A stretch of 64,000 bases of DNA, taken from positions 62,001 through 126,000 of the forward strand of contig JASTWF010000048.1 of assembly GCA_030390025.1 (NCBI GenBank), given 5' to 3'. A program made the position numbers and the translations under genes. The stretch is from Squalus acanthias (taxonomy: Eukaryota). The notes under the pieces were generated by a model. The model ran no database searches, had not been told where the DNA came from, and saw only the letters and a list, made by a program, of their open reading frames with translations. Below are positions 5,726-61,559 of the stretch, in pieces (positions within the stretch are counted from its first letter, which is position 1; each line of letters starts with the position of its first letter).

Positions 5726-5741
5726 GACAGTAGAGGGCGCT
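5726..5741 (+). promoter_or_regulatory. CTCF-like motif (first of about 18 co-oriented copies behind A units)
   Basis: GACAGTAGAGGGCGCT resembles the CTCF core CCASYAGRKGGCRS. Confidence 0.6.
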
Positions 5742-6084
5742 CTAGGACCAGGAAATAAACCCTTGCCCGAACGTCGTTCAATCGGAACACAGGAACAGAA
5801 GTAGGCTATTCAGCGCACCGAGCCTCTTACACAGGAACGGGAGAAGGCCATTCAGCCTCTCGAGCTTGTTACATAGGAACTCGAGGAGGCAATTCATCCA
5901 TTTAATCAGATCACTGCTGATTTGTACCTCGAATTCATTAACCCCCCTTTGCTGCATATCCCTTTATATCCTAACCCAACATACATCTATCTAACTGTAT
6001 AAACCAATAAAAAAATTCTCCAAAGTAACTCTTCAGCTGAAGAAGTGAAGTTTGCTAAAACGATGCTCGGGAAATTATTTCCTC

Positions 6085-6460
6085 TTCCATTTAGCTCTGT
6101 ATTCGTGGTCATTCACGTTCCAGCTCAGCGAGTGTTATCTCCGATGTGGGACGGGTTCACTGCAGTCTGAATACAGTGGGGCCGTTTGCAAGTTCCTCAG
6201 TCAAGGGCGAGTCTTTGAGTCCACCAGATCGTCATAGGCCCAACCATGCAATAGAACAGATGAACAGCCCGATGTGACCCTGATATTGTTGCACCGACTG
6301 CCTCCCGTTATCAAAAGGGCTTACTTTAGACCAGTGTTGTCCATGTGTTAGCCACCAGTCACATGTGGCTAATTGGGAATCAAGGTATGGCTAATTGGGA
6401 TTCTACTTGTGGCTTATCGGGAATCCAGACGTGGATAATTCCATTTCTGATTAGCAAACA
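6085..6460. repeat. Conserved upstream block of A-family units with a 22-bp TGGCTAATTGGGAATC tandem repeat
   Basis: Near-identical copies at about 10515, 12890, 18935, 20760, 26063, 30513, 34755, 36783 and 39110. Confidence 0.8.
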
Positions 6461-6708
6461 ATAAACGAGCGATAGACACCGTTGTTGGGAATGTTAACGG
6501 CAGAAGGTCCAGTCTGTCATTGGTAATTAGCAAGCACATCGATGCTGATTGTTTCGCTCGAGGAAGGGGGCGTGACCTTCTCTACATCACTTCCTCACTC
6601 TGCTCAAGGTTTCCTCAATGATTTTTAAAGAGCGGTTTGGCTCCCCACAAGACTCCACGCTGCTGTTCTCGCTGCTTTCATTATTAAGAGAAACGCTTCA
6701 AGAAAAAG

Positions 6709-7163
6709 ATGTATCTGTTACTGAGTCTTGTTATCTTGTTTCACCGTAAGATACTTTTGCAAACATTAATTATTGTTAATAACGTAATTTTACGTCTTTC
6801 TTTCTTTTTCTCCCATTGCCCCGGATGTCCCAATTTACTGACCTCCTCCTCTCCTTCTCTTACACGGATGTGAACTCGCAGAGTATCCGGCAGTTTCCCG
6901 CCGCTGTCTCTAGATTTCCCGGGGATGGAGTGGTACTGAAGTGCACTCTGGAAAGCACCAGTACTCAGACTATGTTCTGGTAGAGACAATACCCGGGGAA
7001 GGAGCCGCAGTCCATGTTTTACTCCTTGTTTACCAATCACCTGAATCCAGAGGGGGCGGTGGACGGTTTTACCGCCGAGCGACCGAATGGCAACGAGTTC
7101 AACCTGAAGTCCTCCAGCCTTCGGCTGAATCACTCGGCCGTGTATTACTGCGCCTGGAGTCTT
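6709..7163 (+). pseudogene. TRBV: TCR V family A, copy A2 (pseudogene)
   Basis: Leader 6709-6745; acceptor AG changed to GG (6866-6867); TAG at 6981-6983 directly after the conserved Trp. Confidence 0.92.
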
Positions 7164-7202: not shown

Positions 7203-7699
7203 CCAAAGGCGGCAGGAATCACCTGTGGAAGATGAAACCGCGCGGTGTTGTTGTTATTATTTTACAGAGCGAACGTGTTTTTGACAACAAGAAGAGACGT
7301 GTTAGAATAAAAGTGAGAGATTACATATAGAGGCACTGGAGAAGGTGCAAAGAAAGCTTAGCAAGAATGATACGACTATTGAGAGGTTGTAAAGGTCTGG
7401 AAAGTATAATAGAAAGACTTTGGTTTTTCGGCACTTACACTGTGTTTTCTTTCAGCACAGGGACAGCAGAGTGCGGTCCATGACCATAAAACACATCTGA
7501 TGATAGAACATAGTTAAATAGGAACACAGAAGCAGGAGAGCGACTAAAAGCTCGAGTCTGTTGTACGGGAACAGGAGGAGACCATTCAGCACTCCTCGAG
7601 TCTGTTACACAGGAACAGGAGGAGACCATTCATCCCTCCTCGAGTCTGTTATACAGGAGCAGGAGGAGGTCATTCACCGCTCCACCCTGTTACGTAGGA

Positions 7700-9123: not shown

Positions 9124-9131
9124 TGACGTCA
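9124..9131. promoter_or_regulatory. CRE palindrome in the family C promoter
   Basis: TGACGTCA about 100 bp 5' of the leader ATG; also at 16758, 33543 and 46153. Confidence 0.7.
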
Positions 9132-9227
9132 GAGACGCAAGACCCGCCTCCAACAAGTAACCAATCGGTGCAATTATCTGAGAAGCGGTTCCCGACTGAT
9201 TTAGGAGCAGCGAATGAGCGGAGTGGG

Positions 9228-11662: not shown

Positions 11663-13513
11663 CCAAAGGCAGCAGGAAACACCTGTGGATGATGAAACCG
11701 CGCGGTGCTGTTGGGTTTATTTTGCAGAGCGAACGTGTTTCTTACAACAAGAAGAGACGGGTTAGAATACGAGTGAGTGATTAGATATAGAGGCACTGGA
11801 GAATGTGTAAATAAAGATTAACAAGAATAATGAGAGAATTGATTGTTTTAAAACATCAGGAAATAATGAACAGGCTCGGGCTGTTATGTCTCGAAAAGAG
11901 AAGTCTGAGGGGTGACCTGACAGAGATCTTTAAACATTATCAATGGGTTTAATAGGTTAGGCGTAGTGAAGAAAGATAGAAAGAAAGGAAGTTAGCAAGA
12001 ATAAGAGGAAGAAAGATAGGAAGAAACGGGTAATAAATAAAAGAAGAAGGAAATTAATAAATAATGAAATAACGAAATAATGAAAAAAGAAAGGAATGAA
12101 GCAGGGAAGAAAAAAGTGAAGGAAAGAAAGATGGTGAAACGAAAGAATGATAGAAAGACAGAACGATAGTCAAGAAAAATAGAGCGAAATATAGAAAGAC
12201 GAAAAGCAATTAAAAATCCTTTTTTATACACTGACATTGTGCTTTATTTATCCACAGGGACAGTAGAGGGCGCTGTAGACCATGAAACTCACCAGTGCCT
12301 GGAACATGATTCAATCGGGACACTGGAACAAGATGAGGTCATTCAGCCCCACGAGCCTCTTACACAGGAACAGGAGGAGGCCATTCAGCCCCACGAGCCT
12401 CTTACACAGGAACAGCAGGAGACCATTCAGCCCCACGAGCCTCTTACACAGGAACGGGAGGAGGCCATTCATCCACTTGCGTCTGCTCTGCCTTTCAATA
12501 TTTAATTCAACCTCATTATCCCGCCTTTGCAGCATATCCCTTGATATCTTAACCCAACATGAATCGATCAAACTCAGCCTTGCGAGCTCCAATTGTCCCC
12601 CAGCATCCGCAGCCTTTTGGGGGTGAGAGTTCCATATTTCAAAATGGAATTGGATAAATACTCGAAGGAGCAAAACTGCAGGGACATGGGGAAAGAGCGG
12701 GGGAGTGGGACTAACTGGATTGTTCTTCGAAAAAGCCAGCGCAGACTCGATGGGCCGAATGACATCCTTCTGTGCAAAGCAATTCGATAACTGAATGATT
12801 TTTTTCAAAATACATAAATTCTCAACAGCCGGATTTTATTTGCAGTACTGAGGGTCATTAAGAACACCTAGTAAATTATTTACTCTTCCATTTAGCTCTA
12901 TATCTGTGGCCATTCATGTTCCAGCTCAGAGACTGTTACCTCTGATGTGGAACAGGTTAACTGCAGTCTGAATACAGTGGGGCCGTTTGCAAGTTCCCAA
13001 GTCAAGGGCGAGTCTTTGAGTCCTCCTGATCGTCACAGGCCCAACCATGCAATAGAACAGATGAACAGCCCGATGTGACCCGGATATTGTTGCCCCGACT
13101 GCCTCTTGTTATCAAAAGGGTTTGCTTTAGACCAGTGTTGTTCATATGTTAGCCATTAGGCCATTCACATGTGGCTAACTTGGGATACAGCTGTTGATAA
13201 CTGGGAATCCAGATGAGGCTAATTGGGAATCCAAATGTGCATCAATGCATTTCTGATTCGTAAATAAAGAATGAGAAACAGACACCATGGTTGGGAATAT
13301 TAACGGCATCAGATCCAGTCAGCCATTGACAATTGGCAACCATATTGGTTCTGATTAGTTCGATTGGGTAAGGGGCGTGTCCAACCGTACATCACTTCCT
13401 CACGCTCTTCATATTTTCCTCAATGATTTGAAAAGGACGGGTTCGCTCCTCACAAGACACAACTCTCCTGTTCTCGCTCCTTTCATTATTAAGAGAAAAA
13501 CTTCCAGTAAAAG

Positions 13514-14113: not shown

Positions 14114-14424
14114 CATGAGTCGCAGGAAACACCTGTGGCAGATGAAATTGCGCAGTGCTGGGACCTGTTGTTTTATTTTTACAATGCTAACCTCTTTATG
14201 GCAATAACAAAAGACAGGTTAGTATAATAGAGAGATTAGATGTGACACTGGAGAAGGTACGAAGAAAGATTACCAAGGATGACACCAGAACTGAGAGGTT
14301 GTAACTATCTGGAAATAATAAAAATAAAAAGTATTGGGTTTTTATACACGAACAATGTGCTTTCTTTCTCCACAGGGACAGCAGAGGGCGCTCTAGGATC
14401 ACAAAAGACTCAGTTGTGTGAAAT

Positions 14425-20032: not shown

Positions 20033-21380
20033 CCAAAGACGGCAGGAAACACCTGTGGATGATAAAACAGAGCGAGTCCGCGTCCTGTTGGGTTTATTTT
20101 ACAGAGCGAACGCGTTTTTGACAACAATAAGAGACGAGTTAGAATAAAAGTGAGAGATTAGGTATAGAGGCTCTGGAGAAGGTACAAAGAATGATTAACA
20201 AGGATGACACCAGCATTGAGTGGTTCTAGCCATCAGGAAAAGCTGAACAGGCTCGGACTGCTTTGTCGAGAAAAGAGAAGGCTGAGGGGTGACCTTGCAG
20301 ACGTCTTTAAAGATTAGCAATGTGAATTATAGGGTAGGTGCAGAGAGGAAAGATAGAAAGAATCAAAGGAAGAAAGAAAGGAAGAAAGAGAAAAAAAATA
20401 AAGGAAGAGGGAAAGAAAGAAGGACAGAACAGAAGAACGGAAGAAAGAAAGGAAGGAAGTCGGAAGGAAAAAAGGTGAAGGATAGAACGAAAGATAGAGA
20501 AAAGAAAGAAAGATAGAAACGCATAAAGTTGAAAGAAAAATAGAGCGAAATATAGAAAGAGGGAAAATAAGTAAAATACTATTTCTTACAGACTGACATA
20601 TAGTTGTATTTTTCCACAGGGACAGTAGAGGGCGCTCCAGAACCAGGAAATAAACCAGCGCCGGGAACATCGCTCAATAGGAAAACAGGAACAGAAGGAG
20701 GCTATTCAGCGCACCGAGCCTCTGACACAGGAACGGGAGCATGCCATTCAGCCCCTCTTCCATTTAGCTCTATATCCGTGGCCATTCGCGTGCCTGCTAA
20801 GGGCGTGTTATCTCTGATGTGGGCCGGGTTCACTGCAGTCTGAATACAGTGGGGCCGTTTGCAAGTTCCCCAGTCAAGGGCGAGTCTTTGAGTCCTCCAG
20901 ATCGTCACAGGCCCAACCATGCAATAGAACAGATGAGCAGCCCGATGTGACCTGGATATTAATGCACCGACTGCCTCACGTTATATAAAGGGCTTACTGT
21001 AGATCAGTGTTGTCCATGTGTTAGCCTCTCGTCACATGTGGCTAATTGGGAATCAAGGTATGGCTAATTGGGAATCTACATGTGGGTAATCGGGAATCCA
21101 GACGTGGAAACTTTCATTTCTGATGTGCAAACAATAAATGAGCGATAGACACCGTTGTTGGGAATGTTAACGGCAGAAGGTCCCGTCTCTCATTGGTAAT
21201 TAGCATGCACATCGATTCTGATTGGTTCGATCAAGGAAGGGGCGTGTCTAACTCTGCATCACTTGCTCACTCTGCTCAGTGTTTCCTCAATAATTTTTAA
21301 AGAGCGGGTTGGCTCCTCACAAGAATCCACGCTCCTGTTCTCGCTGCTTTCATTATTAAGAGAAACGCATCAAGTAAAAG

Positions 21381-21896: not shown

Positions 21897-22927
21897 CCGA
21901 AGGCGGAAGAAGACACCTGCTTAAGATAAAACCGCGCAGTGCTGTTGGGATTATTTTGCAGAGCGAACATGTTTTTGACAACAAGAAGAGACGGGTTAAA
22001 ATAAAAGTGAGAGATTAGATATAGAGGCACTGGAGAAGGTGTAAATAAAGAATATCAAGGACAATGCCAGAATTGAGAGGTTTAAACAATCAGGAAATGC
22101 TGAACAGTCTGGGACTCTTTTCTCCAGAAAAGAGAAGGTTGAGGACTGACCTGACAGAGGTCTTTAAATATTATCAATGGGGTTGATAGGTTAGACGTAG
22201 TGAAGAATGATAGAAAGAAAGGAAGATAGAAAGTATAAAAGAAAGAAAGATAGGATGGAAGTGGAAATAAATAAAGGTAGAAGGACAGAAAGAAAGAATT
22301 AATGAAAGAAGGAAATAAAGAATAAAGAAAGGAAGGAAGCAGGGAAGAAAAAAGAAAAGGAAAGAAAAATGGAGAAAAGAAATAACGACAGAAAGGCAGA
22401 ACGATAGTGATGAAAAATAGACCGAAATATTGAAAGAAGGAAAGTCATTAAAACTATTTTTTATACACTGACATTGTGCTTTCTTTCTCCACAGCGACAG
22501 TAGAGGGCGCTCTAGATCATGAAACACACCAGTGCCCGGAACATGGTTCAATCGGAACACAGGAACAGGAGGAGGCCTTTCAGTCTCACGAGCCTGTGTC
22601 ACAGGAACGGGAGGAGGCCATTCAACCGTTCTACCGATCATGGCTGATTTGTAACTCAGTTGTATTTGGGACTGTTCTGGACTCGCCCACCAGAGGAAAT
22701 AGTTTATCTGTATCGGATTATTTTAACATTTTAAACACCTCAGTCAGTTCACTCCTCAATCTCCAAATCTCAAGTGGATGCAAGCCAAGTTTATGCAACC
22801 TGTCCGCAGCAATTAGCCCTCTCAGCCCCGGTTTCATTCAGATAAATATGCGTTGCACCCCCTCCACATCCTTCCTGAGGTACGGTGCAGTTACTCCAGA
22901 TGGAGTCTGACCAGGGCTCGGTGCAAC

Positions 22928-24873: not shown

Positions 24874-26319
24874 CCAAAGGCGACAGGAAACACATGTTTA
24901 AGATAAAACCGCGCGGTGCTGTTGGGTTGATTTTGCAGAGCGAACGTGTTTTTGACAACAAGAATATACGGGTTAGAATAAAATTGAGAGATTAGAAATA
25001 AAGGCACTGGAGCAGATGCAAAGAAAGATTAACATGGATGACACCAGAATTGAGAGGTTCTAGCTATCAGGAAATAATGAACAGACTCGGGCTGTTTTGT
25101 CTAGAAAAGAGAAGGTTGAGGGGTGATCTGACAGAGATCTTTAAATATTATCAATGGATTTGATAGGTTAGGCTTAGGGAAGAAAGATAGAAAGAAATGA
25201 AGATTGAAAGTAGAAGAGAAAGAAACATAGGAAGATAAAGGGAAATAAAGAAAGAAAGAAGGAAAGAAAGGAAGAAATAATGTAAGAACAAAATAAAGAA
25301 TAAATAAGGATGGAGGCAGGGAAGAAAAAAGAGAAGGAAAGAAAGATAGAGAAAAGAAAGAACGAAATATAGAAAGAAGGACGGTAATTAAAAGTACTTT
25401 TTTATACACTGATATTGTGCTTTCTTTCTCCACAGGGACAGTAGAGGGCGCTCTAGACCATGAAACACACCAGTGCCCGGAACATGTTTTAATCGGAACA
25501 CAGGAACAGGAGGAGACCATTCAGCCCCTCGAGCCTGTGACACAGGAACAGGAGGAGGCCATTCAGCCCCTGGAGCCTGTTACACAGGAACGGGAGGAGG
25601 CCATTCAGCCCCTCGAGTCTGTTACACAGGAAGGGGAGGAGGCCCTTCATCCACTTGCGTCTGCTCTGCCTTTTAATCTGTAATTCAACCTCATTAACCC
25701 GCCTTTGCTGCATATCCCTTGATCTGCTAACCCAAAATGAATCGATCCAACTCAGACTTGTGAGCTAAAATTGTCGCCCTGCATCGGTAGCCTTTTGGGG
25801 GCGGGAGTTCCATATTTCAAAAGGGAATTGGATAAGTACTCGAAGGATCAAAACTGCAGGGATATGGGGATTGAGCTGGGGGTGCGACTAACAGGATTGC
25901 TCATCGAAAGAGCCGATGCAAACTGCATGGGCCGAATGACCTCCTTCTGTGCTACACTATTCTATGATTCTATGAGTTTTTCAAAACAATTAATTGCTCA
26001 AAAGCCAGATTTTTGGGGAATAATTAGGGTCATTAAGGAAACCTAGCAAATTATTCCTTCTTCCATTTAGCTCTATATCCATGGCCATTCATGTTCCAGC
26101 TCAGCGAGTCCTATCTCTGATGTGGGACGTGTTCACTGCAGTCTGAATACAGTGGGGCCGTTTGCAAGTTCCCCAGTCAAGGACGAGTCTTTGAATCCTC
26201 CTGATCGTCATAGGCCCAACCATGCAATAGAGCAGATGAAAAGCCCGATGAGACCCGGATATTGTTGCACCGACTGCCTCACGTTATCAGAAGAGTTTAC
26301 TTTAGACCAGTGTTGTACA

Positions 26320-27343: not shown

Positions 27344-27344
27344 G

Positions 27345-29720: not shown

Positions 29721-31134
29721 CAGAAAGAAATAATGAAAGAACGAAATAAAGAAAAAAGAAAGGAATGAAGCAGGGAAGTTATAAATGAAGGAAAGAAATA
29801 TAAAGAAAAGAAAGAAAGCTCGACGGCAGAACGATAGTAAAGAATTATAGAACGAAATATAGAAAGAAGGAAAGTAATTAAAAGTACTTTTTTTATACAC
29901 TGACATTGTGCTTTATTTCGCCACAGGGAGAGTAGAGGGCGCTGTAGACAATGTAGACCAGTGCCCGGAACATGGTTCAATCGGAACACAGGAACAGCAG
30001 GAGGCCATTCAGCCCCAGGAGCCTCATACACAGGAACGGGAGGAGGCCATTCAGCCCCACGAGCCTGTTACACAGGAACAAGAGGAGGCCATTCTTCCAC
30101 TTGCGTCTGCTCTGTCTTTTAATCTGTAATTCAACCTCATTAACCCGCCTTTGCTGCATATCCCTTGATATCCTAACCCAACATGAATCGATCCAACTCA
30201 GCCTTGCGAGCTCCAAAGTGTCCCTCTGCATCCGTAGCCTTTTGGGGGCGAGAGTTCCATATTTCAAAAGGGAATTGGATAAATACTCTAAGGATCAAAA
30301 CTGCAGGGATATGGAGAAAGACCGTGGTATTGGGACAAACCGGATTGCTCTTCGAAAGAGCCGGCGCAGGCTCGATTGGCTGAATGACATCTTTCTGTGC
30401 TGCACTATTCTATGATTCGAAGAGTTTGTCAAAATACATAATTTCTCAACCGCTGGACTTTATTGGGAATAATGAGGGTCATTAAGGATACCTTGGAAAT
30501 TATTCCTTCTTCCATTTAGCTCTATATTCGTGGCCATTCATGTTCCAGCTCAGCGAGTGCTATCTCTGATGTGGGAACGGGTTCACTGTAGCCTGAATAC
30601 AGTGGGGACGTTTGCAAGTTCCCCAGTCAAGGGCGAGTCTTTGAGTCCTCCTCATCGTCACAGGCCCAACCATGCAATAGGACAGTTGAACAGCTCGATG
30701 TGACCCGGATATTGTTGACATGACTGCCTCACTTTATCAAAAGGGCTTACTTTAGACCAGTGTTGTTCATGTGTCAGCCACTAGTCACATGTGGCTAATT
30801 GGGAATCAAGGTATGGCTAATTGGGAATCTACATGTGGCTAATCGGGAATCCAGACGTGGATAATTTCATTTCTGATTAACAAACAAGAACCGAGCGATA
30901 GACACCGTTGTTGGGAATGTTAACGGCACAAGGTCCAGTCAGTCACTTGTAATTAGCAAGCACATCGATTCTGATTGGTTCGCTGGAGGAAGGGGCGTGT
31001 CCAACTCTGCATCACCTCCTCGCGGTGCTCAAGGTTTCCTCAATGATTTTTAAAGAGCGGGTTGGCTCCTCACAAGACTCCACGCTCCTGTTTTCGGTGC
31101 TTTCAATTATTAAGAGAAACGCTTCAAGTAAAAT

Positions 31135-31622: not shown

Positions 31623-32119
31623 CCAAAGGCGGCAGGAAACACCTGTGGATGATAACATTGTGCGGTGTTGTTGTATTTATTTTACAGAGCGAACGTGTTT
31701 TTGACAACAAGAAGAGACGGGTTTGAATAAAAGTGAGAGAATACATATATAGGCACTGGAGAAGGTGCAAAGAGAGATTAACAAGAATGACACCACTTTT
31801 GAGAGATTGTAACGGTCTGGAAAGTATAATAAAAATACTTTGGTTTTTCGGCACTTACACTGTGTTTTCTTCCAGCACAGGGACAGCAGAGGGCGCTCCA
31901 TGACCATAAAACACATCTGATGCTAGAACATAGTTAAATAGGAACACAGAAGCAGGAGAGCGACTAAAAGCTCGAGTCTGTTGTAGGGGAACAGGAGGAG
32001 GCCATTCAGCACTCCTCGAGTCTGTTACACAGGAACAGGAGGAAGCGATTCATCGCTCCTCGAGTCTATTACACAGGAACAGGAGGAGGTCATTCACCGC
32101 TCGACCCTGTCATGTAGGA

Positions 32120-34466: not shown

Positions 34467-35364
34467 AGAAAGAAAGAAAGTAAGGAAGCAGGAAAGAAAA
34501 AAGGAGAAGGATAGAACGAAAAATAGAGAAAAAGAAAGAAAGATAGAAACGCAGAAAGATAGAAAGAAAAATAGAACGAAATATAGAAAGAAGGAAAGTA
34601 AGTAAAATAATATTTTTTATACACTGACATTGTGTTGTATTTCTCCACAGGGACAGTAGAAGGCGGTCAATAGGAACACAGGAACAGCAGCAGTCTATAC
34701 AGCGCACCGAGCCTCTGACACAGTAACAGGAGAAGGCCATTCAGCCCCTCTTCCATTTAGCTCTAAATTCGTGTCCATTCACGTGCCAGCTCAGCGAGTG
34801 TTAACTCTGATGTGGGACGGGTTCACTGCAGTCTGAATACAGTGGGGCCGTTTGCAAGTTCCCCAGTCAAGGGCGAGTCTTTGAGTCCTCCTGATCGTCA
34901 CAGGCCCAACCATGCAATAGAACAGATGAACAGCCCGATGTGACCCGGATATTGTTGCAACGACTGCCTGAACTTATCAAAAGCGCTTACTGTAGACCAG
35001 TGTTGTCCAAGTGTTAGCCACTAGTCACATCTAGTTAATTGATAATCAAGGTATGACTAATTGGGAATCTACATGAGATTAATCGGGAATCCAATCGTGG
35101 ATAAATTCATTTCCGATTAGCAAACAATAAACGAGCGATAGACACCGTTTTTAGAAATGTTAACGGCATAAGGTCCAGTCAGTCATTGGTAATTAGCAAG
35201 CACATCGATTCTGAGTGGTTCGCTCGAGGAAGGGGCGTGTATCACTTCCTCACTCTGCTCAAGGTTTCCTCAATGATTTTTAAAGAGCGGGTTGGCACCC
35301 CACAAGACTCCACGCTCCTGTTCTCGCTCCTTTCAATTATTAAGCGAAACGCTTCAAGTAAAAG

Positions 35365-35861: not shown

Positions 35862-37402
35862 CCAAAGGCGGCAGGAAACACCTGTTGATGATGGAACAGA
35901 GTGCTGCCGCGCCCTATTAGATTTATTTTACAGAGCGAACGTTTTTTTTTGACAACAATAAGAGACGGATTAGAATAAAAGTGAGAGATCAGATGTGGAG
36001 GCTCGGGAGAAGGTGCAAATAAAATTTAACAAAGACGACACCAGAATTGACAGGATCTATCTATCAGGAAATGCTAAGCAGGCTCGGGCTGTTTACCCTA
36101 GAAAAGAGAAAGCTGAGGTTTGACCTGGCTGAGCTCTTTTAGGATTAACAATGTGCTTTGTCGGCATACAGAAGAATGATAGAAAGAAAGGAAGGTAAGA
36201 AGAATAAAAGAAGAAATGTAAGAAAAAGAGAAAGAAAATAAAGGAAGAGGGAAAGAAAGAAGGACAGAACAAAAGAAAGAAAGAAAGAAAGGAAGAAAGC
36301 AGGAAAGTAAAAAGGAGAAGGATAGAATGAAAGATAGAGAAAAGAAAGAAAGAGAGAAACGCAGAAAGATAGAAATAAAAATAGAACGAAATATAGAAAG
36401 AAGGAAAGTAAGTAAAATACTATTTTTATACACTGACATTATGTTCTCTTTCTCCACAGGGACTGTAGAGGGCGGTCAATAGGAACACGTGAACAGAAGT
36501 AGGCCATTCAGCGAACCGAGCCTCTGACACAGGAACGGGAGAAGGCCGTTCAGACCTCGAGCTTGTTACATAGGAACACGAGGAAATCATTCATCCTTTT
36601 AATCAGATCATGGCTGATTTGTACCTCGACTTCTTTCACCTGCCTTTGCTGCATATCCCTTGATAACCTAACCCAACATTAATCTATCCGACTGTATAAT
36701 CCAATAATTAATTTCTCCACAGCAGAAATTCAGTTGAAGAAGTGAAGTGTGTTAATGACACCCAGGAACTTATCCCTTCTTCCAATTAGCTCTACATCCG
36801 TGGCCATTCAAGTTCCAGCTCAGCGAGTGTTGTCTCTGATGTGGAACGGGTTCACTGCAGTCTGAATACAGTGGGGACGTTTGCAAGTTCTCCAGTCAAG
36901 GGCGAGTCTTTGAGTCCTCCTGATCGTCACAGGCCCAACAATGCAATAGAACAGATGAACAGCCCGATGTGACCCGGATATTGTTGTACCGACTGCCTCA
37001 CGTTATCAAAAGGGCTTACTGTAGACCAGTGTTGTCCATGTGTTAGCCACTAGTCACATGTGGCTAATTAGGAATCAAGCTATGACTAATTGGGAATCTA
37101 CATGTGGCTAATCGGGAATCCAGACGTGGATAATTTATTTTCTGATTAGCAATAAATAAACGAGCCATAGACACCGTTGTTGGGAATGTTAACAGCAGAA
37201 GCTCCAGTCAGTCATTGCTAATTAGCAAGCACATCGATTCTGATTGGTTCGCTCGAGGAAGGGGCGTGTCTAACTCTGCATCACTCCCTCACGCTGCTCA
37301 GTGTTTCCTCAATGATTTTTAAAGAGCGGGTTGGCTCCTCACAAACTCCACGCTCCTGTTCTCGCTGCTTTCAATTATTAAGAGAAACGCTTCGAGAAAA
37401 AG

Positions 37403-37869
37403 ATGCATCTGTTACTGGGTCTGATTATCTTGTTTCACCGTAAGGGACTTTTTCAAACATTAATTCTTGCTAATTACCTACTTTTACGTTTTACTTTCTT
37501 TCTTTCTTTTTCTCCCATTGCCCCGGATGTCCCAATTTACTGACCTCCTCCTCTCTCCCTGTCTCTTTCCCAGATGTGAACTCGGACATTATCCGCCAGA
37601 CTCCCGCTGCTGTCTCCAGATTTCCCGGGGTTGGAGTGGTAATAAAGTGCACTCTGGAAAGCACCAGTACTAGGTATATGTACTGGTACACACAATACCC
37701 GGGGAAGGAGCCGCAGTCCATGTTTTATTCCACGTTTACCAATCACGTGAATCCAGAGGGGACGGTGGACGGTTTTATTGCCGAGCGACCGAATGACAAC
37801 GAGTTCAACCTGAAGTCCTCCAGCCTGCGGGCGAATCACTCGGCCGTATATTACTGCGCCTGGAGTCTG
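37403..37869 (+). CDS. TRBV: TCR V family A, copy A11
   Basis: Leader 37403-37439; V exon 37574-37869 open (WYTQ). Confidence 0.93.
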
Positions 37870-37908
37870 CACAGTGACTCAGAGAGATGGAGGAGCTCAA
37901 CAAAAACC
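37870..37908 (+). other. 23-RSS (A11)
   Basis: CACAGTG-23-ACAAAAACC. Confidence 0.95.
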
Positions 37909-39740
37909 CCAAAGGCGGCAGAAGACATCTGTTTAAGATAAAACCGCGCGGTGCTGTTGGGTTTATTTTACAGAGCGAACATGTTTTTGACAAGAAGAAG
38001 AGACGGGTTAGTATAAAAGTGAGAGATTAGATATAGAGGCACTGGAGACGGTGGAAAGAAAGTTTAGCAAGGATAATGCAAGAATTGAGAGATTTAAACT
38101 ATCAGGAAATGCTGAACAGGCTGGCACAACTTTTTTCTAGAAAAGAGACGGCTGAGGGGTGACCTGATAGGCGTTTGATACGTTAGGCGTATTGAAGAAA
38201 GATAGAAAGAAAGGAAGACTGAAAGAATAAAAGAAAGAATGATAGGAAGAAAGAGGAAAATAAATAAAGGAAGAAGGAAAGAAAGGAAGAAATAATGAAA
38301 GAACGAAATAAAGAAAAAATAAGGGAAGGAATTAGATAAGAAAAAAGAGAAGGAAAGAAAGATAGAGACAATAAAGAAAGGAAGATAGAAAGGCAGAACG
38401 AAAATAATGAAAAATAGAACGAAATATAGAAAGAAGGAAAGTCATAAAAAACCTTTATTCATACACTGACATTGTGCTTTCTTTCTCCACAGGGACAGTA
38501 GAGGGCGCTCTAGACCATGAAACACACCATGGATCAATCGCAACACAGGAACAGGAGGAGGCCATTTAGCCCCACGAGCCTGTTACACAGGAACAGGAGG
38601 AGGTCATTCAGCCCCTCGAGCCTGTTACACAGGAACAGGAGGAGGCCATTCAGGCCCACGAGCCTCTTACTCAGGAACGGGAGGAGGCCTTTCAATCACT
38701 TGCGTCTGCTCTGCCTTTTAATTTGTAATTTAACCTCATCAACCCGCCTTTGCGGCATATCCCTTGATATCCTAACGCAACTTGAATCGATCCAACTCAG
38801 CCTTGCGAGTTCCAATTGTCCCCCAGCATCCGCAGCCTTTTGGGGGCGAGAGTTACATATTTCAAAAGGGAATTGGTTAAATACTCGAAGGAGCTAAACT
38901 GCAGGGATATGGGGAAAGAGCGGGGGACTGGGGCTAACTGGATTGCTCTTCGAAAGAGCCAGCAGAGACTCGATTGGCCGAATGACCTCCTTCTGTGCTA
39001 CACTATCCTATGATTCTATGATTTTTTTCAAAATACATAATTTCTCAACAGCCGGAATTTATTTGCAGTAATGACGGTCATTAAGAACACCTAGGAAATT
39101 ATATCTCTTCCATTTAGCTCTATATCCGTGGACATTCATGCTCCAGCTCAGCGAGTGTTATCTCTGATGTGGAACGGGTTCACTGCAGTCTGAATACAGT
39201 GGGGCCGTTTGCAAGTTCCCCAGTCAAGGGCGAGTCTTTGAGTCCTCCTGATCGTCATAGGACCAATAATGAGCCAAACCTTGCGGTGGAACAGACCCAC
39301 AGCCCGATGTGATCCGAATATTGTTGCCCCGACTGCCTCTTGTTATCTAAAGGGTTTGCTTCAGGCAAGTGTTGTTCATATGTTAGCCATTATCAATGTG
39401 GTTAACTTGGGATACAGCTGTTGATAACTGGGAATCCAGATGAGGCTAATTGGGAATCCAGATGTGCATCAATGCATTTCTGATTCGTAAATAATCAATG
39501 AGTAACAGACACCGTGGTTGGGAATATTAACGGCATTATATCCAGTCAGCCATTGATAATTGGCAACCACATTGGTTCTGTTTAGTTCCATTGGGTAAGG
39601 GGCGTGTCCAACCCTACATCACTTCCTCACGATCTTCAAATTTTCCTCAATGATTTGAAAAGAGCGGCTTCGCTCCTCACAAGGCACAACTCTCCTGTTC
39701 TCGCTCCTTTCATTATTAAGAGAAAAACTTCCAGTCAAAG

Positions 39741-40443: not shown

Positions 40444-40749
40444 CATAAGTCGCAGGAAACACCTGTGGGAGATGAAATTGCGCAGTGCTGGGACCTGTTG
40501 TTTCATTTTTAAAGAGCGAACGTGTTTATGACAATAACAAGAGACAGGTTAGAATAATAAATAGATTAGATGCAGAGACACTTAAGCAGGTGAAAAATAA
40601 AGATTAACAAGGATGACACCAAAACTGAGAGATTGTAACATTCTGGAAATAATAAAAGTAAAAGGTATTGGGTTTCTATACAGTGACACTGTGCTTTATT
40701 TCTCCACAGGAACAGCAGAGGGACCATGAAACATTCAGTTACGTGAAAT

Positions 40750-41160: not shown

Positions 41161-41979
41161 GGCTGACCTGTGAAGAAGTGACCTGATAGAATTCTTTAAA
41201 ATTATGAAGCGGTTTCAGAGTGTAGATGTAGTTATATTTATGACTCCAAGATTTGCTCTTCCATTTGTTTGGGAAACCAAAACTTGGGCCCATAATGTAA
41301 GCGACTCACTAATAAATCCAGTAGGGAATTCAGGAGAAATTTCTTTATTCATGGAGTGGGTACCACAGGGAGTGGTTGAGGCGAATAGCATAGATGCAGT
41401 TAAGGCGAAGCTGGATAGGTGCATGAGAGAGAAAGTAATAGAAGGTGATGCTGATAGAGTACAGCATCAACCCATACTGTGGTGAAGTGTTGAGCACATT
41501 CAGTTAGCAGAGGGCAAGGGTTTTAACAGGTCAAACCGGTTCTGACCACAACAAATAAAATTATCAAATTAAAATATGAAAGAAAGAAAGATGGAATGAC
41601 AGANNNNNNNNNNNNNNNNNNNNNNNNNNNNNNNNNNNNNNNNNNNNNNNNNNNNNNNNNNNNNNNNNNNNNNNNNNNNNNNNNNNNNNNNNNNNNNNNN
41701 NNNNNNNNNNNNNNNNNNNNNNNNNNNNNNNNNNNNNNNNNNNNNNNNNNNNNNNNNNNNNNNNNNNNNNNNNNNNNNNNNNNNNNNNNNNNNNTTATAC
41801 ACGTGCAATGTGCTTCATTTCTCCACAGGGACAATAGAGGGCGATCTAAGACCATGAAACCCACCAGTGCATGATTCAATCGGATCAGAAATGTAGATTC
41901 AGCCACCTCAAAACCCTCCACCGTTGAAGCAGATCATGGCTGATCTGTATCTTAGCTCAATTTACCCATGTTGATCAAA

Positions 41980-45942: not shown

Positions 45943-45977
45943 TGCAGCGGATGAATGGCAGTTCAGTGCTCATTTTT

Positions 45978-45995
45978 CGCCACCAGGTGGCAGCA
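45978..45995 (+). promoter_or_regulatory. CTCF motif about 35 bp 3' of the D1 RSS
   Basis: CGCCACCAGGTGGCAGCA; variant CACCACCAGGTGACAGCA at about 55794. Confidence 0.75.
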
Positions 45996-47956: not shown

Positions 47957-48374
47957 TAGAACGATATAATGATAGAGAAAGAAAAAGAAAAGGATAGAGA
48001 AAGAAAGAACGAAAGAAAGAAAGGAAGAAAGAAAGAAGGAAAGAAAGAAAGACGGAATGAAAGAGAGAATGAAAGGTTTAGAGAATAAAGAAAGACAGAA
48101 AGAAAGAGAGACAAAGAGAGAAGGATNNNNNNNNNNNNNNNNNNNNNNNNNNNNNNNNNNNNNNNNNNNNNNNNNNNNNNNNNNNNNNNNNNNNNNNNNN
48201 NNNNNNNNNNNNNNNNNNNNNNNNNNNNNNNNNNNNNNNNNNNNNNNNNNNNNNNNNNNNNNNNNNNNNNNNNNNNNNNNNNTTTGTCGACTGACGCTGT
48301 GGTTCTCCACAATGACAGCAGAGGGCGCTCTAGGACTCTGAAAGACATCAGTGCCTGGAACATGGTTTAATAGG

Positions 48375-50298: not shown

Positions 50299-50341
<43 letters not shown>

Positions 50342-50779
50342 AAGAAAGAATGATACAAAGATGGAAACAAGGCAGAAACGAAAATATGATAGAAAAAAAG
50401 AAAGACAGACAGAATGTAAGAAAGTTGAAAGAAAGAAGAAAGACAGAAAGGAAGGAAGGAAGAAAGAAGAAAAACAAAACATTTAAGAAACAAAGAAAGA
50501 ATGATCGAAAGAAGCAAAGGATGTAAATAGACTGTCGGGATTTTACACACTGACAGTGTGTTGTCTTTCTCCACGGAGACTGAAGATGGCGCTCTAGTAA
50601 CATGAACTGCACGGTTGCTTGTAATACGGTTTCATGTGGAATAGAAGAGAGGTCATTTAGTCCCGCTCATGCTGTTTCATAGGAACAGGACAAGTCCTTT
50701 AGCCCCTTTAGGACCGTGTACACAGGCACAGGAGTAGACCCATTCAGCCACACGAGCCTGTTACACAGGAACAGGAGGA

Positions 50780-54813: not shown

Positions 54814-55736
54814 ATGTTTCATGAAGCTCATTATCTAACGTTGATGGTGGCACTGATCCCACGTAAGTCAAAGTAACAAACTTATGCAGAGTTCTTTGTA
54901 GAATAATGTATTATAATGCCAGCTGTTGTTCAGCTGGTTCAAATCTTGCCTTTGAATCAGAGGATTTGGGTTGGAGTCTTACTCCTGAGACTTGAGCACA
55001 AAATCTATGCTGGCAATCACGAGACCAGCACTGAGGGAGTGCTGCACTATCGGAGATGCCGTTTTTCAGATAAGGTGTTAAACTGAGCTGCCCTCTCAGG
55101 TGGACGTACATGATCCCATTGCACTATTGGAAGAAGAGCAGCGAAGTTGTCGCCGGTGACCTGGGCCAACATTAATCCCACAACATACACCAAAAAAACA
55201 GATTTACTGGTCATTTATTTCAAAGCAGTATGTGGGAGCTTGCTGTGCTCAAATTGGCTTTCTCGTTTCCTTCATTACAACAATGACTGCACTTTAATCA
55301 GTACTTCATTGATTGTAAAGAGCTTTGTGACTTTCTGAGGTCGTGAGTGGCGCTTTATGAATTGAAGATATTTTTCTCTGTAGTCCGTGCTCAAATAAAT
55401 TATTGGCAAAAATAAGAAACTAATCGATGTTGCATTCGACAGGAATACTCGCCTCGTACGTGGAGCAGTCGCCTTCTGTCCTATCGATTGGAGCAGGAGA
55501 GTCGACCACGCTCACATGCACGCTGACTAATACTGGCTATAACGAAATGTACTGGTACAGACGAAAACCCGACCAGGCATTAGAAGCTCTTTTCTATTCT
55601 GTTGGAGCAGGAGCTGTTACGAAATACACGACCGAGACTTTTAAGGCCGAAAGAAGCAGCAATACGCTGTTTACTTTGGAACTGAGCGCCGCCTCTCCGT
55701 CTCACACCGCTGTCTATTACTGTGCTTGTAGTACCG
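54814..55736 (+). CDS. TRBV: TCR V family D, copy D2
   Basis: Leader 54814-54862; V exon 55443-55736 open; same intronic SINE at about 54918-55378. Confidence 0.93.
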
Positions 55737-55775
55737 CACAGCGTTTGAGAAAGCGGCTCCCCCGCTACAAAAACC
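55737..55775 (+). other. 23-RSS (D2)
   Basis: CACAGCG-23-ACAAAAACC. Confidence 0.93.
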
Positions 55776-56042
55776 TTTTCACTGCTCATTTTCCACCACC
55801 AGGTGACAGCACTAGATATTAGTTCAGTGTTTGATTTCTACTTCATTCCTTCCCCGCCTCTCCTCTCTCCAACTCCTTCGTCTCCCGGCCCTCGCATCCC
55901 CTATTCCCTCCTCTGCCCTCCCCGCATTAAATGACTGGGGACAAGATGGTGAGGCGTGTAGTCTGACATCATACGTCATCCACGCCCCGCAACAAGTAAC
56001 CAATCCGTGCGCTTGTGATTGAATCAGGAGGAGTGGAGGGGG

Positions 56043-56115
56043 ATGGAAGTGCGGGGCTGTGGGACCGCGTATCTCTCACTCCTGCTCCACTGTCTGAAAC
56101 TGGAGATTTGCTTTG
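56043..56115 (+). pseudogene. Orphan family C leader (C5), donor lost
   Basis: Paralogue of 46219-46291; GTCAG changed to ATCAG. Confidence 0.7.
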
Positions 56116-56917
56116 ATCAGCGCACGTTTACATTTGAATGCAGTTTGATTTAATAGAGAGAGAACGCGAGAGAGAGAGAGAGAGAGAGTTAGTGAGTGAG
56201 GGAGTGAGAGAGACAGAGACAAAAAGAGAGAGAGACAGCGACAGAGACAGAGAGGAAAGAGAGAGACAAAGAGGGAGAGAAAGCGAGTGAAAGAGAGGCG
56301 AAAGAGAGACAGAGAGTGATACATAGCGAGTGAAAGGGAGACACAGAGACAGAGAGGGGAAAGAGAGAGAGATAGAGAGAGAGAGAAAGCGAGTGCAAGT
56401 GAAACGCAGAGACAGAGAGAGGAAAGAGAGAGACAGAAAGTGGACAGAGAGAGACACAGAGAGAGAAAGCGAGTGAAAGAGAGACAGAGAGAAAGAGAGG
56501 CAGGGAGCGAGAGACAGGAGAGAGAGTGAGACAGAGAGAGAGACAGAGAGACAAGAGGGAGACACACACATACACAGACATAGAGAGAGAAACACATGTG
56601 CAGAGAGACATAAAGCGAGAGAGACAGAAACATACACAGCCAGAAAGTGAGAGAGGCAGAGAGAGAGCCGGATGAACAGCGAGAGAGAAAGAGAGAGAGA
56701 GAGATTAAGAGACAGAGAGAGAAAGGGGGAGACATTAGCAAACACGTCGATTCCGATTGTTTGAACTGGAGAAAGAGGGTGTATCCGTCCTTCTATTGGT
56801 TCCTTATGCTCTTCATATTTTTCTCAAAGATTTGAAAAGATCGCTTTGCCTCCTCGCAACACTCAATGCTCCTGCTCTCGCTCCTTCCCTCATTAGAATT
56901 AAACATGAAAATAAAAT

Positions 56918-57249
56918 ATCTATCTGTTACTGGGTCCGCTGAACTTGTTCCACCTGAAGAGAAATTTTCAAACAGTAATTATTGTTAACAACCTCAATTT
57001 ACTTTCTTTCTTCCTTTTTTCTATCTCTCTTTCTGTCTTTCGCTCTTGCTCCCATTCCCCATTGCCCGAATGACCCTGTCTACTGACCTCCTCCTCTCCC
57101 CGTCTCTTTCCTGGATGTGAGATCGCAGATTATCCGCCAGACTCCCGCCGCAGTCTCCAAATTACCCCGGGAGCGTGTGGAACTGAAATGCTATGTGAAA
57201 TCTGTCAGTAACCATAACATGTTCTGGCACAGGCAATACCCGGGGAAGG
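56918..57249 (+). pseudogene. Truncated family A relic
   Basis: Same lesions and breakpoint as 46969-47297. Confidence 0.8.
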
Positions 57250-59088
57250 CTGCTTTCTCTAGAAACGAGAAGACTGAGGCGTGAGCTGATAGCGAAAATT
57301 ATGAAAGGTGTTCGATAGGATAAATGTAGGGAAGATATTTCCACTTGTGAGGAAGACCATGCTCGTGGTCATAAATATAAGATAGTCACTAATACGTCCA
57401 AATAGGGAACTCAGGAGAAAACACTTTACCCAGAGAATGGCGAGAATGTTGAACTCGCTACCACAGGGAGTAGTTGAGACGAATAATATAGTTGCAGTTA
57501 AGGGGTAGCTAGATAAGCACATGGGGGGTGAAAGGAATAGAAGATCATGCTGATCGAGCGCAACATCAACCTGTCCTGTCTGAAGTGTTGAGGACATTCA
57601 GTCATCCGAGGTCAATGGCTTTAAATGGTAGGTGAAGTTCCCTCTGAGCAAAACAAATGAAAATAATCAATGCAAAAAGAAAGAAAAGAAGGTATGAAAA
57701 AAGAAAGAAAGAGGGAAATAAAGATTAAAGTAAAGAAGGAAAGAACGATATAATGGGAAGGGAAAAAACGATAGAGAAAGAAAGACAGAAAGAAAGAAAG
57801 TAAACACACGGGTGGGTTTTGGTCGACTGACGCTCTGTTTCTCCAAAAGGACAGCAGAGGGCGCTCTAGAGCCATGAAAGACATCAGTGCCTGGAACAAG
57901 GTTTAATAGGAACACAGGAACAGGAGGAGGCCATTCAGCTCTTCAAGCCTGCCGCGCCATTTGATTTGGTCATAGCTGGAACTTATCTTAAATCCATCGA
58001 GCCGCTTTTGCTCCCTATCTCTTGATCTACTTACCCAAGAAAAAATCTGTGAATCTCGGTCTAGAAATCTTCAATTGACAGCCAGCACGCGCATCGTTTT
58101 CGGGCAGAGAGTTGAAGATTATTTCTGCCCTTTGTGTGAAGAAGTGCTTCCTGCCCTAACGCCAGAAAGGCTTAGCTCTCACTGTAAAGTTATGCCCCGT
58201 TTTTCTAGACTCCGCCACCAGTGGACATACTTTCATTCTATCTTCCCTATCAACTCCTTTTAACATTAAAAGACTGAATCAGTTCACCCCTCAATCCTCT
58301 ATACTCAAGGGTGTACAAGCCTAATCTGTACAACCTGTCTTCATAATTTAACCCTCTAAGCCCTGGTATCATTCTGGTGAAACATGCCTTGTCCTCCCTC
58401 CAAGGACAAAACATCCTTCCTGAGGTGCGGTCCCCAGAACTGAACCTAGTTTGCCAGATGGAGTCTGACCAGGGCTCTGTCCAACTGAAGCACAAATTCC
58501 TCCCTTTTGTATTCCAGCCTCCTTGACATAAAGGCCAACATTCCATGAAGCAGTTTGATTCTTTTTTGCCCCTGTCTCCTGGCTTTTAGTGATTTGTGTA
58601 CCTGGCCAACAAAATGTCTTTGCTCCTCGACAGTTTCCAGCTTCTCATTAGTTAGAAAATACTCTGATGTTTCTTCCTCAGGCCCCCAGTGGATGACCTC
58701 ATACTTGCCCACGTTCCACGTTAAACTCAACCTGCCGCAGTTTCTTCTCATCCACGTAAGTTGTTTTGGTCAACCTTGCAACTTCCTGCTCCCGTCTGCT
58801 CTGCCTACTGCCAAACAGAGAGGGAGGGGCTGGACTGTCAATTAGAGTGGGAGGGGCGGGACGATGTTTCAGAGAGTGAGGGGGCGGGTCTGTCAATCAG
58901 CGTGGGAAGGGGTGGGGCTGTGAATCAGCCTGGGAGTGGAGGAGCGGTGCTGTCAATCAGAGAGGGAGGGGCCTGCATCACTTCTTTCCGCTCGTCAATG
59001 ATTTGAAAAGGGCGGGTTGGATCCTCACAAGATTCAACGCTCTTGTTTTTGCTGATTTCATTTTTAAAATAACATTTTGAAGTAAAAG

Positions 59089-59590
59089 ATGTATCTGTTA
59101 CTGAGTCTCATGATCGTATTTCAATGTAAATGATTTTTTCAGACAATAATCTTTGTTAATAACCTTTCTTTAATCTTTCTTTCTTTCCTTCATTGTTTCC
59201 TTCATTCTCTCTTTCTCTCGCTCTTTACTTCTTTCTTCCTCCACAAACCAGAAGGCTCCTGTTTACTGACCTCCTCTCCCCGTCTCTTTCCCAGACGTGA
59301 ACTCAGAGACGGTCCGCCAGACTCCCGCCGCTCTCTCCAATATTCCTGGGGAGGGAGTGGAACTAAAGTGCGACGTGGTGGGTGCCAATAGCGGTACCAT
59401 GTCCTGGTACAGACAGGACCCGGGGAAGGGGCCGCAGTTGATGTTTTACTCCATGAGTAACAATCACGTGGATCCAGAGGGGACGATGGACGGTTTTACC
59501 GCCGAGCGACCGAATGGCAACGAGTTCAACCTGAAGTCCTCCAGCCTGCAGTCGAATCACTCGGCCGTGTATTACTGCGCCTGGAGTCTT
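59089..59590 (+). CDS. TRBV: TCR V family A, copy A14
   Basis: Leader 59089-59125 (donor GTAAAT); V exon 59295-59590 open. Confidence 0.92.
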
Positions 59591-59629
59591 CACAGTGACT
59601 CAGAGAGATGGAGGAGCTCAACAAAAACC
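59591..59629 (+). other. 23-RSS (A14)
   Basis: CACAGTG-23-ACAAAAACC. Confidence 0.95.
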
Positions 59630-61559
59630 CCAAAGGCAGCTGGAAACATCTGGTGATGATGAAACAGCGCGGTGCCTCGTCCTGTTGGTTTTATCTTGCA
59701 GAGCGAACGTGTTCTTGGCAAGAATAACAGACGGACTGGAATAAAGCGAGAAAGTAGATTAAAAAGGACACTGGAGAAGCTGCAATGAAAGATAAGTTAA
59801 ACATAGTGAAGAACGATAGAACAAAAGGAAGATAGAAATAAAGAAGGAAAGAAAGAGAGGGAGAACGAAAAAAGAAAGAAAGACAGAACGAAAGAATGAT
59901 ATAAAGAAAAAAAAATTCTGGAAAGAAGGAAAAAAGGAACAAGGATACCCAGAAAGAAAGGAAGAAAGATACACAGAAAGAAAGGAAGAAAGAAAGATAG
60001 AAAAAAGGAAATAAAGTAAAAAGACTGTGAAGCTTTTACACACTGACACTGTGTTTTCTTTCTCCACAGAGACTGAAGAGGGCGCTCTAGGACCATCAAA
60101 CACACGGTTGCTTGTAATATGGTTTAATATGGAATAGAAGGAGGTCATTCAGTCCCCTTGAGCCTGATACATAGGAACAGGTCAAGATCAATAAGCATCC
60201 TCGAGACCGTATACGCAGGTACAGGAGAAGGCCCATTAAGCCACACGAGCCTCTTACACAATAACAGGAGGAGCCCATTCAGCCCCTCTCGTCTGTTACA
60301 TAGTAACAAGAGGAGGACATTCAGCCCCTCGAGTCTGTTACATAGGAACAAGAGGAGGACATTCATGCTGTCGAGTCTGCTCTGCAAGCCAATTAGATCA
60401 TGGGTCATGTGTATCTTTCTTCTGTCTAACCGCAATTTCTGCATGTACCTTGATAACCTTACCCTACAAATATCGATCAATAACAGTCTTAAAAGCTCCA
60501 ATTGACCCTCACCTTCAACAGACTCTTGGAGGAGAGAGTTACACATTTCCACTACCATTGTGTGAAGAGGTAGTTTTTCACACAAGGCCTGAAGGACCTA
60601 ACTCTAACTTTAAGGTTACTCCCCCCTGTTCTGGACTCCCCCACCAGAGGAAATAGTTTCTCTCTATCTACCCTATCAACTTATTTTAACATTTACAAAA
60701 CTCAATCAGTTCAGCACTGAATCTTCTATACTCAAGGTAATATAGGTCAAGTTTTGCAATCATTTCTCATAATTTAACCCTCTCAGTCCCGGGTATCAGT
60801 CTGGTGAATCTGCGCTGCATCCCCTCCAAGTCTAATATATCCTTCCTGAGGTGCGGTTACCAGAATTGAACTCAGTTCTCCAGATGGGGTCTGACCAATT
60901 CTCTATAGGACAGAAGAATAACTTCCTGCCGTTTGTATTCCAGACCCCTTGAGATAAAGGACAACATCCCTTTAGCCTTTTTGATTTATTTTCCCCCAAT
61001 CTACCAGCATTTAGTGAATTTTTTTACCTGGTCACTTAAATCCCTTTGTTTCTCCGCAAATCCCAGTTTAAAACCATTTAGAAAATACTCTGATCTATAT
61101 TTCTTAGGTCCCAAGTGGATGGCCTAGCACTTCCCCACGTTAAATTACTTCTTGCACTGTTTTGCCCGCTCACTTAATCTCTGAATCCCTTTTGCAAATC
61201 CCGGTTCCCATCTGTTCTACTTACTGCCAATCAGAGAGGGAGGGGCCGGGCTGTTCATTGGAGTCGGTGGGGAGGGGCTGTCAATCAGAGAGGTATGATG
61301 GGGCCGTCAAACAGAGAGGGCGGACGGGGCTGTCAATCATCGAGTGAGGGTTGATTCCGTCAGTGATAAAGGGGCGTGGCGGGATTGACAATCATAGAGA
61401 GAGTGGCGGGGCATTGTCCCTTCAGTCTTTTTTGAAATAGAGACCGTTGCCGTTTACACGCGCCAGTTCAGGCCTTGCACACAGCAGTCTTAGTGCTCCA
61501 GTCTCTGGGCAGCTTTTTGGGTCGAGGGGCTCCCGGTCTGAGACCCTCTGTCCCGGAAC

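Follow-up and report, generated by a model that had tools for sequence, protein, structure and literature searches.

At the mouse immunoglobulin (Ig) heavy-chain locus, Igh, the proximal variable (VH) genes depend on a CTCF-binding element (CBE) located 3' of the gene; pseudogenes lack the element, and when a dead CBE is repaired its VH becomes the one used most (PMC7930373). The VH sites linked to the recombination signal sequence (RSS) are at 17-19 bp from its nonamer in mouse, and in human a spacing of 48 bp also occurs (PMC6746451); such RSS-associated CBEs are excised on recombination (PMC4914699). The V-region CTCF sites of mouse Igh and of the T cell receptor (TCR) beta locus, Tcrb, all face the end of the locus that carries the diversity, joining, and constant (D-J-C) segments, and Tcrb has 18 bound sites for 33 V genes in 666 kb, several of them at promoters and only 2 near an RSS (PMC5859386). 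A V-proximal CBE of Tcrb anchors and ends loop extrusion (PMC10772921). Conservation of RSS-associated CBEs has been followed, in PMC6746451, only through mouse, human, chimpanzee, and rabbit. For cartilaginous fish, CTCF motifs, cohesin genes, and inward-facing sites at the borders of topologically associating domains (an orientation code) have been described in the skate, genome-wide and in fin tissue (PMC10115646); our limited literature search, which covered few subscription journals, found no earlier report of V-linked CTCF sites in this group. Here we describe CTCF-like elements located 3' of the V genes in an array that is probably a TCR beta-chain locus of the shark Squalus acanthias. 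The array occupies the window analyzed, a stretch of 64,000 nucleotides (positions 62,001 to 126,000 of contig JASTWF010000048.1, assembly GCA_030390025.1), and all coordinates given are those of the window.

CTCF-like elements behind the V genes

The window is a tandem array of gene segments, each comprising a leader and a V exon, all on the plus strand and with RSSs that have 23-bp spacers. Four V families (A to D) can be distinguished. Family A, in which the V ends in CAWSL, has 14 RSS-bearing segments, 11 open and 3 pseudogenes, together with two RSS-less remnants and one orphan leader; family B has two open copies and one that is frameshifted, family C has two open copies, and family D has zero open copies seen, one copy falling in gaps. 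An earlier note on this DNA had listed 18 GACAG(T/C)-type motifs on one strand, described as lying behind almost every A unit, mostly 0.3-0.7 kb 3' of an RSS, and persisting where an adjacent GA tract and remnants of long interspersed nuclear elements (LINEs) were deleted. All 18 are present on the plus strand. The 16-mer has ten exact copies at the ten coordinates given for it, all plus (0 expected; 0 of 100 shuffles reach 10), and a search allowing up to three mismatches recovers 17 of the 18 named sites, again all plus and with none elsewhere (0.63 expected); the 18th, at 40711, has a 9-bp deletion through the 3' end of the motif. The description of placement holds for the RSS-bearing A segments, since the element is 3' of the RSS in 14 of 14, at a distance from the heptamer of 296-654 bp in 13 units (257-615 bp from the nonamer) and of 2130 bp in the fourteenth (2091 bp from the nonamer), which has a LINE insert. 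It does not hold for four sites that have no RSS of their own (34652, 41830, 48314, and 57850): two are behind RSS-less A remnants, one (34650..34668, 13.7 bits on the CTCF matrix introduced below) follows a truncated V of family D that is fused to an A flank, and one (41828..41846, 11.7 bits) directly follows an assembly gap, with no upstream V seen. In 6 of 14 units the element has persisted although the GA tract, or the greater part of the LINE remnant, is gone.

The 18 A sites are copies of one ancestral element, which belongs to the flank 3' of a V unit that has been duplicated. Their number, common strand, and chance figures therefore measure duplication and are not evidence of function; the shared orientation, which the earlier note had read as CTCF architecture, is present in all 18 but carries no weight among paralogous copies. 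The element lies between the LINE remnant and GA tract on one side and a 42-bp repeat on the other, and it moves with the upstream A flank, the next leader being 0.7-3.3 kb away and of any family. A dispersed repeat was ruled out within the window, where BLAST finds the element at only the 18 A-type positions, and a known RNA was ruled out by an Rfam scan of the whole window (0 matches). The RSS-to-site distances of about 260, 460, and 595 bp, considered as nucleosome steps, are just three deletion classes.

Scores in bits and their p values come from a 19-column CTCF matrix, and the window was scanned as a cross-check with the CTCF consensus printed in PMC6746451. The matrix scores are strong, 12 of 18 A sites having p < 1e-5 and 17 of 18 p < 1e-4 (19 of 20 when the family-C sites described below are included). 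Over the whole window the matrix gives 11 matches on the plus and 0 on the minus strand at p < 1e-6 (0.12 expected), 14 and 1 at p < 1e-5, the single minus match mirroring a near-palindromic plus site, and 23 and 5 at p < 1e-4 (12.3 expected). With at most one mismatch, the published consensus has 12 matches, 12 of 12 on the plus strand (0.58 expected), which comprise 10 of the 18 A sites (one mismatch each) and the family-C sites (0 and 1); at two mismatches there are 22, 17 plus and 5 minus (8.2 expected). Four weak plus-strand matrix matches, at 15089, 22684, 58212, and 60638 (7.5-11.2 bits), are inside a shared reverse LINE-like segment and are probably repeat-borne. Likeness to the REST/RE1 element, checked by inspection, was rejected, as the left half is found in just 2 of 18 copies and with the wrong spacing.

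Behind the 11 open A genes, all on the plus strand, the motif is at 5724..5742 (17.8 bits; RSS at 5070), 12257..12275 (18.4 bits; RSS 11624), 14375..14393 (18.5 bits; RSS 14075; GA tract deleted), 20619..20637 (17.8 bits; RSS 19994), 22494..22512 (16.3 bits; RSS 21858), 25435..25453 (17.8 bits; RSS 24835), 31880..31898 (18.5 bits; RSS 31584; GA tract deleted), 36459..36477 (14.2 bits; RSS 35823; a 38-bp deletion starts directly after the motif), 38492..38510 (17.8 bits; RSS 37870), and, in divergent form, 50576..50594 (RSS 50053) and 60069..60087 (RSS 59591).

Both family-C RSSs are also followed by a CTCF-like site, co-oriented with the A element but non-homologous to it, and absent from the earlier note. 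The first, at 45977..45995 on the plus strand, has no mismatch to the published consensus and the best score in the window (23.7 bits), and lies 35 bp after the nonamer of an open V (RSS 45904); the second, at 55793..55811 on the same strand, has one mismatch and 18.4 bits and lies 18 bp after the nonamer of an open V (RSS 55737), the two copies differing by a 17-bp indel. The first is preceded by a nonamer resembling the CTCF upstream motif (45962-45970), which by eye matches the published motif at 6 of 9 positions with a 6-base linker; linkers of 2-7 bases have been reported (PMC12885311). V-linked sites thus have only two independent origins in the window, A and C, and a plus-strand site is within 0.7 kb behind 13 of 15 open V genes. 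At one of the others, B53070, a 333-base gap (53158-53490) occurs where the site would be.

Conservation of the A motif and its decay behind pseudogenes

The tree tests were made with the 14 RSS-bearing A units, on a tree built from their 3' flanks without the motif; the four orphan sites, which have no RSS flank, were excluded here and restored in the score tests. In the 14 units the motif has 14 parsimony changes, where base-matched flank columns predict 30 (P = 0.0007); of 175 overlapping 19-column windows in the flank, the least changed has 15. In the 11 open units there are 9 motif changes versus 25.9 expected (P = 1e-5), a result that is retained with a tree from V exons, with only the first 90 flank columns, which are the best aligned, with only the immediate flanks, and with the divergent pair removed (P 0.0001-0.014). 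Conservation of the motif is thus above that of the adjacent 3' flank over all trees and flank sets (P 1e-5 to 0.014). The changes that do occur behind open genes are mild: 8 distinct motif substitutions cost a mean of 0.99 bits as compared with 3.27 in simulations from the flank spectrum (P = 0.0095). The CpG of the motif is kept in 13 of 13 copies, whereas CpG copies of the post-RSS flank were lost in 29 of 98.

These observations bear on whether the ancestral A unit happened to contain a CTCF-like word that was passively copied by tandem duplication and homogenized by gene conversion. The 18 copies are a single event restricted to A-type flanks, as this explanation expects, and the divergence of the motif is near that of V four-fold sites and of a distal upstream module (see below). 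However, the motif has changed less than half as fast as the DNA that borders it on either side (9 versus 24 changes, P = 0.0003), its substitutions are mild, it decays behind pseudogenes, and another family carries an unrelated consensus site of its own at the corresponding position. We therefore consider a passively copied word quite unlikely.

The decay is seen in the three A pseudogenes, where the motif scores 11.0, 8.4, and 5.6 bits as compared with 10.8-18.5 bits in the 11 open units (exact P = 0.0055), being ranks 1, 2, and 4 from the bottom of 14; P is 0.035 when the four orphan sites are added. The weakened copy at 7460..7478 (11.0 bits) belongs to a V (RSS 7164) that has a stop in framework region 2 (FR2) and has lost its acceptor AG. 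The copy at 29926..29944 (8.4 bits) has lost the core C, its V (RSS 27796) is without promoter and start codon because of a LINE, and a second LINE is present between RSS and site. The broken copy at 40709..40722 (5.6 bits; 9-bp deletion) is behind a V (RSS 40405) with a stop in FR3; all three are on the plus strand. The two most damaging substitutions and the one deletion are all in these three units, and on the flank tree two of the three are paired with an open unit whose site is intact. Along the pseudogene branches the motif gains 5 changes as compared with about 4 predicted from the flank rate, in line with release from selection. Over all 20 sites the score follows the upstream V to which the site belongs (17.0 versus 12.3, P = 0.018), and there is no association with the next V or downstream promoter (P = 0.89, 20 sites).

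The 5' end of the A motif overlaps both a splice-acceptor-like stretch and a heptamer-like word. The first of these raises the possibility that germline V transcripts are spliced from the GT in the RSS heptamer to the element, which would be a 3' splice acceptor followed by the beginning of a terminal exon. A branch-point-like word is present upstream in 16 of 18 copies and a pyrimidine tract (0.69-0.92) precedes the CAG in 15 of 18, and two gene models of Chiloscyllium (P0002 and P0004) have CAWSLH followed immediately by the next V exon, as expected of a donor in the heptamer, although this may be prediction only. Such joins would give tandem-V products. But the 34 bp upstream of the motif, which hold the branch-point-like, pyrimidine-rich, and CAG/heptamer-like sequences (38458..38491, plus strand, in the unit with its RSS at 37870), are not significantly conserved (39 changes versus 48 expected in the 14 units, P = 0.11; P = 0.11-0.13 over the tests), in contrast to the motif; 2 of 18 copies (48312 and 50576), one of them in an open unit, no longer have the AG; and poly(A)-like hexamers precede the element, 3' of the RSS, in 14 of 14 units, whereas only 2 of 14 have them in the 300 bp that follow it. 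The would-be exon has no common frame past about 7 codons, which rules out a coding exon after the acceptor-like AG. As the family-C sites are also left unexplained, a splicing role is improbable.

The heptamer-like word is the basis for a second possibility, that the element is a cryptic or relic 23-RSS, or a D-like relic, whose spacer resembles the CTCF motif by chance. A heptamer no more than one mismatch from consensus overlaps the first three bases of the motif in 15 of 18 copies, its CAC is unchanged in 14 of 14 RSS-bearing units, and the copy at 14371 scores as a 23-RSS with 3 mismatches in total. The nonamer, however, has at least 4 mismatches in 13 of 18 copies, a level reached at 16% of random positions and outside what defines a functional 23-RSS, and in an open unit the 38-bp deletion removes it and spares the motif. 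The conserved part is the would-be spacer, and family C is again not accounted for. By inspection, the inverted heptamer-like word upstream is only 7 bp from a nonamer-like word; this spacer and the poor nonamers rule out a D segment, and the RSS explanation as a whole seems to us very improbable.

Proposed function of the V-linked sites

Motif match, orientation, and position, slower and CTCF-compatible change behind open genes, and decay behind pseudogenes together indicate that the A and C sites are probably functional CTCF sites; we infer that CTCF would bind them in thymocytes. That they serve V access through loop extrusion is a less secure step, which we think more likely than not, and with similar, moderate confidence we take V-linked CTCF elements that stall or anchor cohesin to be the best reading of the data. 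At least two V families would have gained a CTCF site 3' of the RSS independently, and tandem duplication would have spread the sites. They point the same way as V transcription and hence to where the D-J-C end is expected. Loop extrusion by cohesin would be stalled or anchored by each site in the neighborhood of its V, and the stalled extrusion may give this V longer contact with a D-J center loaded with RAG, so that its use is raised or evened out. Because a site 3' of the RSS is excised when its own V rearranges, selection linked to that V would act at or before rearrangement.

A number of observations weigh against this reading. In every A copy an A replaces the first C of the consensus, in the triplet read by zinc finger 7 (PMC12885311), and by inspection the A copies have no upstream motif. 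The RSS is far more conserved than the motif (p-distance 0.037 versus 0.132), and V four-fold sites are similar to it in the 14-unit set (0.127 versus 0.132), although they exceed it in subsets (0.13 versus 0.067 in 9 open units). Nor does the distal upstream module vary significantly more (5 motif changes versus 10.5, P = 0.065, in 7 open units, the comparison covering 9 of 14 units, 7 of them open). The test for mild changes is not significant when pseudogenes are included (P = 0.13 for 14 units, 0.07 for all 18), and the division into open units and pseudogenes was made after the data had been seen and depends on three pseudogenes. Weak sites occur in two open units (50576, 10.8 bits; 60069, 11.6 bits), the open V B62672 has no site within 1 kb (best 3.1 bits, no gap), and the RSS-less remnants retain strong ones (48312..48330, 17.0 bits; 57848..57866, 18.4 bits; both plus strand), in which the core p-distance is 0.07 as against 0.18-0.19 in the flank; either the link to the V is weaker or the site also serves neighbors. 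With just two independent origins, the orientation bias has a 1-in-4 chance, and the overlap with the acceptor-like stretch counts on the same side, as do the variable spacing from the RSS and the quality of the A-family RSSs, which are near consensus: strong RSSs are reported in a preprint to free recombination from positioned loops (PMC13692300). The sites may therefore tune rather than enable V use.

The mode of action also has to be considered. The earlier note held that co-oriented V sites promote RAG scanning; the V-linked CTCF-like sites themselves are supported by scores and conservation, so that two of the three refuting outcomes it had named, weak matrix scores and conservation no higher than in neighboring duplicated DNA, did not occur, but the data from mouse Tcrb favor loop anchoring with diffusion-based synapsis over scanning alone, because an inverted RSS still rearranges there and scanning is thus not the sole mode (PMC10772921). 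By analogy, linear RAG scanning in the shark may be accompanied by a second route to synapsis, diffusion within loops that CTCF anchors. Scanning towards distal genes can also be impeded by CBEs (10.1101/2020.01.01.891473).

A rather unlikely alternative is that these are real CTCF sites with a local job, namely to insulate closely packed V promoters, to block read-through or repeat-derived silencing, or to position nucleosomes at the RSS, with no long-range looping. All of the conservation evidence fits this equally well. There is about one site per 3 kb, far denser than the 18 in 666 kb of mouse Tcrb, each A site is amid LINE remnants and simple repeats, and the orphan sites at 48312 and 57848 are conserved without an RSS. 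Nevertheless, the score tracks the upstream V and not the next promoter, the element goes with the A 3' flank whatever family comes next, several A leaders have no site before them, and both independent elements face one way. Elements that connect each V with loop extrusion remain, in our judgment, the better account.

The array and its place among receptor loci

Families A, B, and C, the families tested, match the Ig V-set domain, and in a protein search 4 of 4 matches were Chiloscyllium models (59-63% identity). In a search with family C, all 10 single-stretch matches at 1e-12 among the 60 matches listed are TCRs, 6 named beta, 3 single-chain alpha-beta, and 1 labeled alpha. A search of solved structures with a family-A V does not identify the chain, the matches being multi-domain antibody constructs; the CAWS ending of this family resembles that of human TRBV30. 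From these similarities the array is probably a cartilaginous-fish TCR locus, of the beta chain. No D, J, or C segments were recognized in the window, and the RSSs found are V-type 23-RSSs on the plus strand only.

An example of the A unit, entirely on the plus strand, has its leader exon at 37403..37439, V exon (Ig V-set, ending CAWSL) at 37574..37869, RSS with 23-bp spacer at 37870..37908, a LINE remnant like the longer LINE-like inserts of the window at 38030..38170, a GA-rich tract at 38195..38441, and, 3' of the motif, the 42-bp tandem repeat at 38543..38694. The 23-bp RSS spacer (as in 37870-37908) is nearly invariant over the 14 units, and a Chiloscyllium model reads through RSS sequence similar to that of family A, which suggests either cross-species constraint on the spacer or strong homogenization. 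The distal module mentioned above is found about 260-560 bp upstream of many A leaders (e.g. 36780-37030, 20760-21010, and 30510-30760); its p-distance of 0.14 is below that of the 3' flanks, and it is possibly an enhancer-like element or a recently spread segment. The V promoters (e.g. 37240-37290, 44840-44865, and 9125-9175) share words that we take to be CCAAT-like, GC-box, CRE-like (cAMP response element), and Ets-like, and a 27-bp tandem repeat with CAAT and GC-box words precedes some A and B promoters. LINE pieces at 26320-27345 and 28220-29720, with endonuclease and reverse-transcriptase matches, flank the V with its RSS at 27796, the first having replaced its promoter and start codon. 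At 43973 an A-type promoter and leader are followed by no V exon. Five family-D leaders (9248, 16878, 33667, 46239, and 56063) have no open V seen, as a result of a stop, truncation, missing V, or gaps, and there is no CTCF-like site behind the family-D RSS region at 10094. The regions of about 44000-53200 and 53900-62800 are a block duplication (C V, D leader, truncated A, site, A V, site, B V) with about 89% identity in one tested stretch.

The shark sites resemble the RSS-associated CBEs of mouse and human proximal and clan II-III VH genes (PMC6746451; PMC4914699; PMC7930373) in being 3' of the RSS, in the polarity of V transcription, and family-specific, and in being more conserved than their flanks, kept at functional genes, and typically missing or decayed at pseudogenes; the family-C site at 55793 even has the same 18-bp spacing from the nonamer as in mouse. 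They differ from this class in belonging to a TCR locus and, for A, in the long and variable spacing, in conservation below that of the RSS, and in the A at the first core position. Mouse Tcrb (PMC5859386; PMC10772921) is probably the same chain type, and its V-region sites also all face one direction, but there the sites are sparse and partly promoter-side, whereas the shark has 20 motifs in 61.5 kb that are tied to the 3' flank and lie behind 13 of 15 open V genes. As the A sites have neither the fixed spacing of 17-19 bp nor the promoter-side layout of Tcrb, we place them in neither class; they may work like V-linked CBEs.

The array thus places an Igh-like layout in a probable TCR-beta locus, and suggests that CTCF-based V architecture may already be present in cartilaginous fish. 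We raise, tentatively and as a possibility that we hold to be on balance doubtful, that a CTCF site just 3' of V RSSs and facing D-J-C is an ancestral rule of jawed vertebrates, older than the split between sharks and bony vertebrates and common to TCR and antibody loci, which selection re-creates in separate V families and which decays when the V dies. If this were true, control of V choice by loop extrusion would have an age similar to that of RAG recombination in translocon loci, and the sparse promoter-side sites of mouse Tcrb would be a derived state. The question at issue is whether control of V(D)J recombination by CTCF and cohesin is a mammalian addition that serves megabase loci or has long been part of adaptive immunity. 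The shark array is compact and has about one site per V, with two independent origins, and its sites are by nature strong, weak, broken, or missing; it makes the question testable without editing the animal, and its sequence hints that the chromosome-folding aid of mammalian receptor assembly may also be used by cartilaginous fish.

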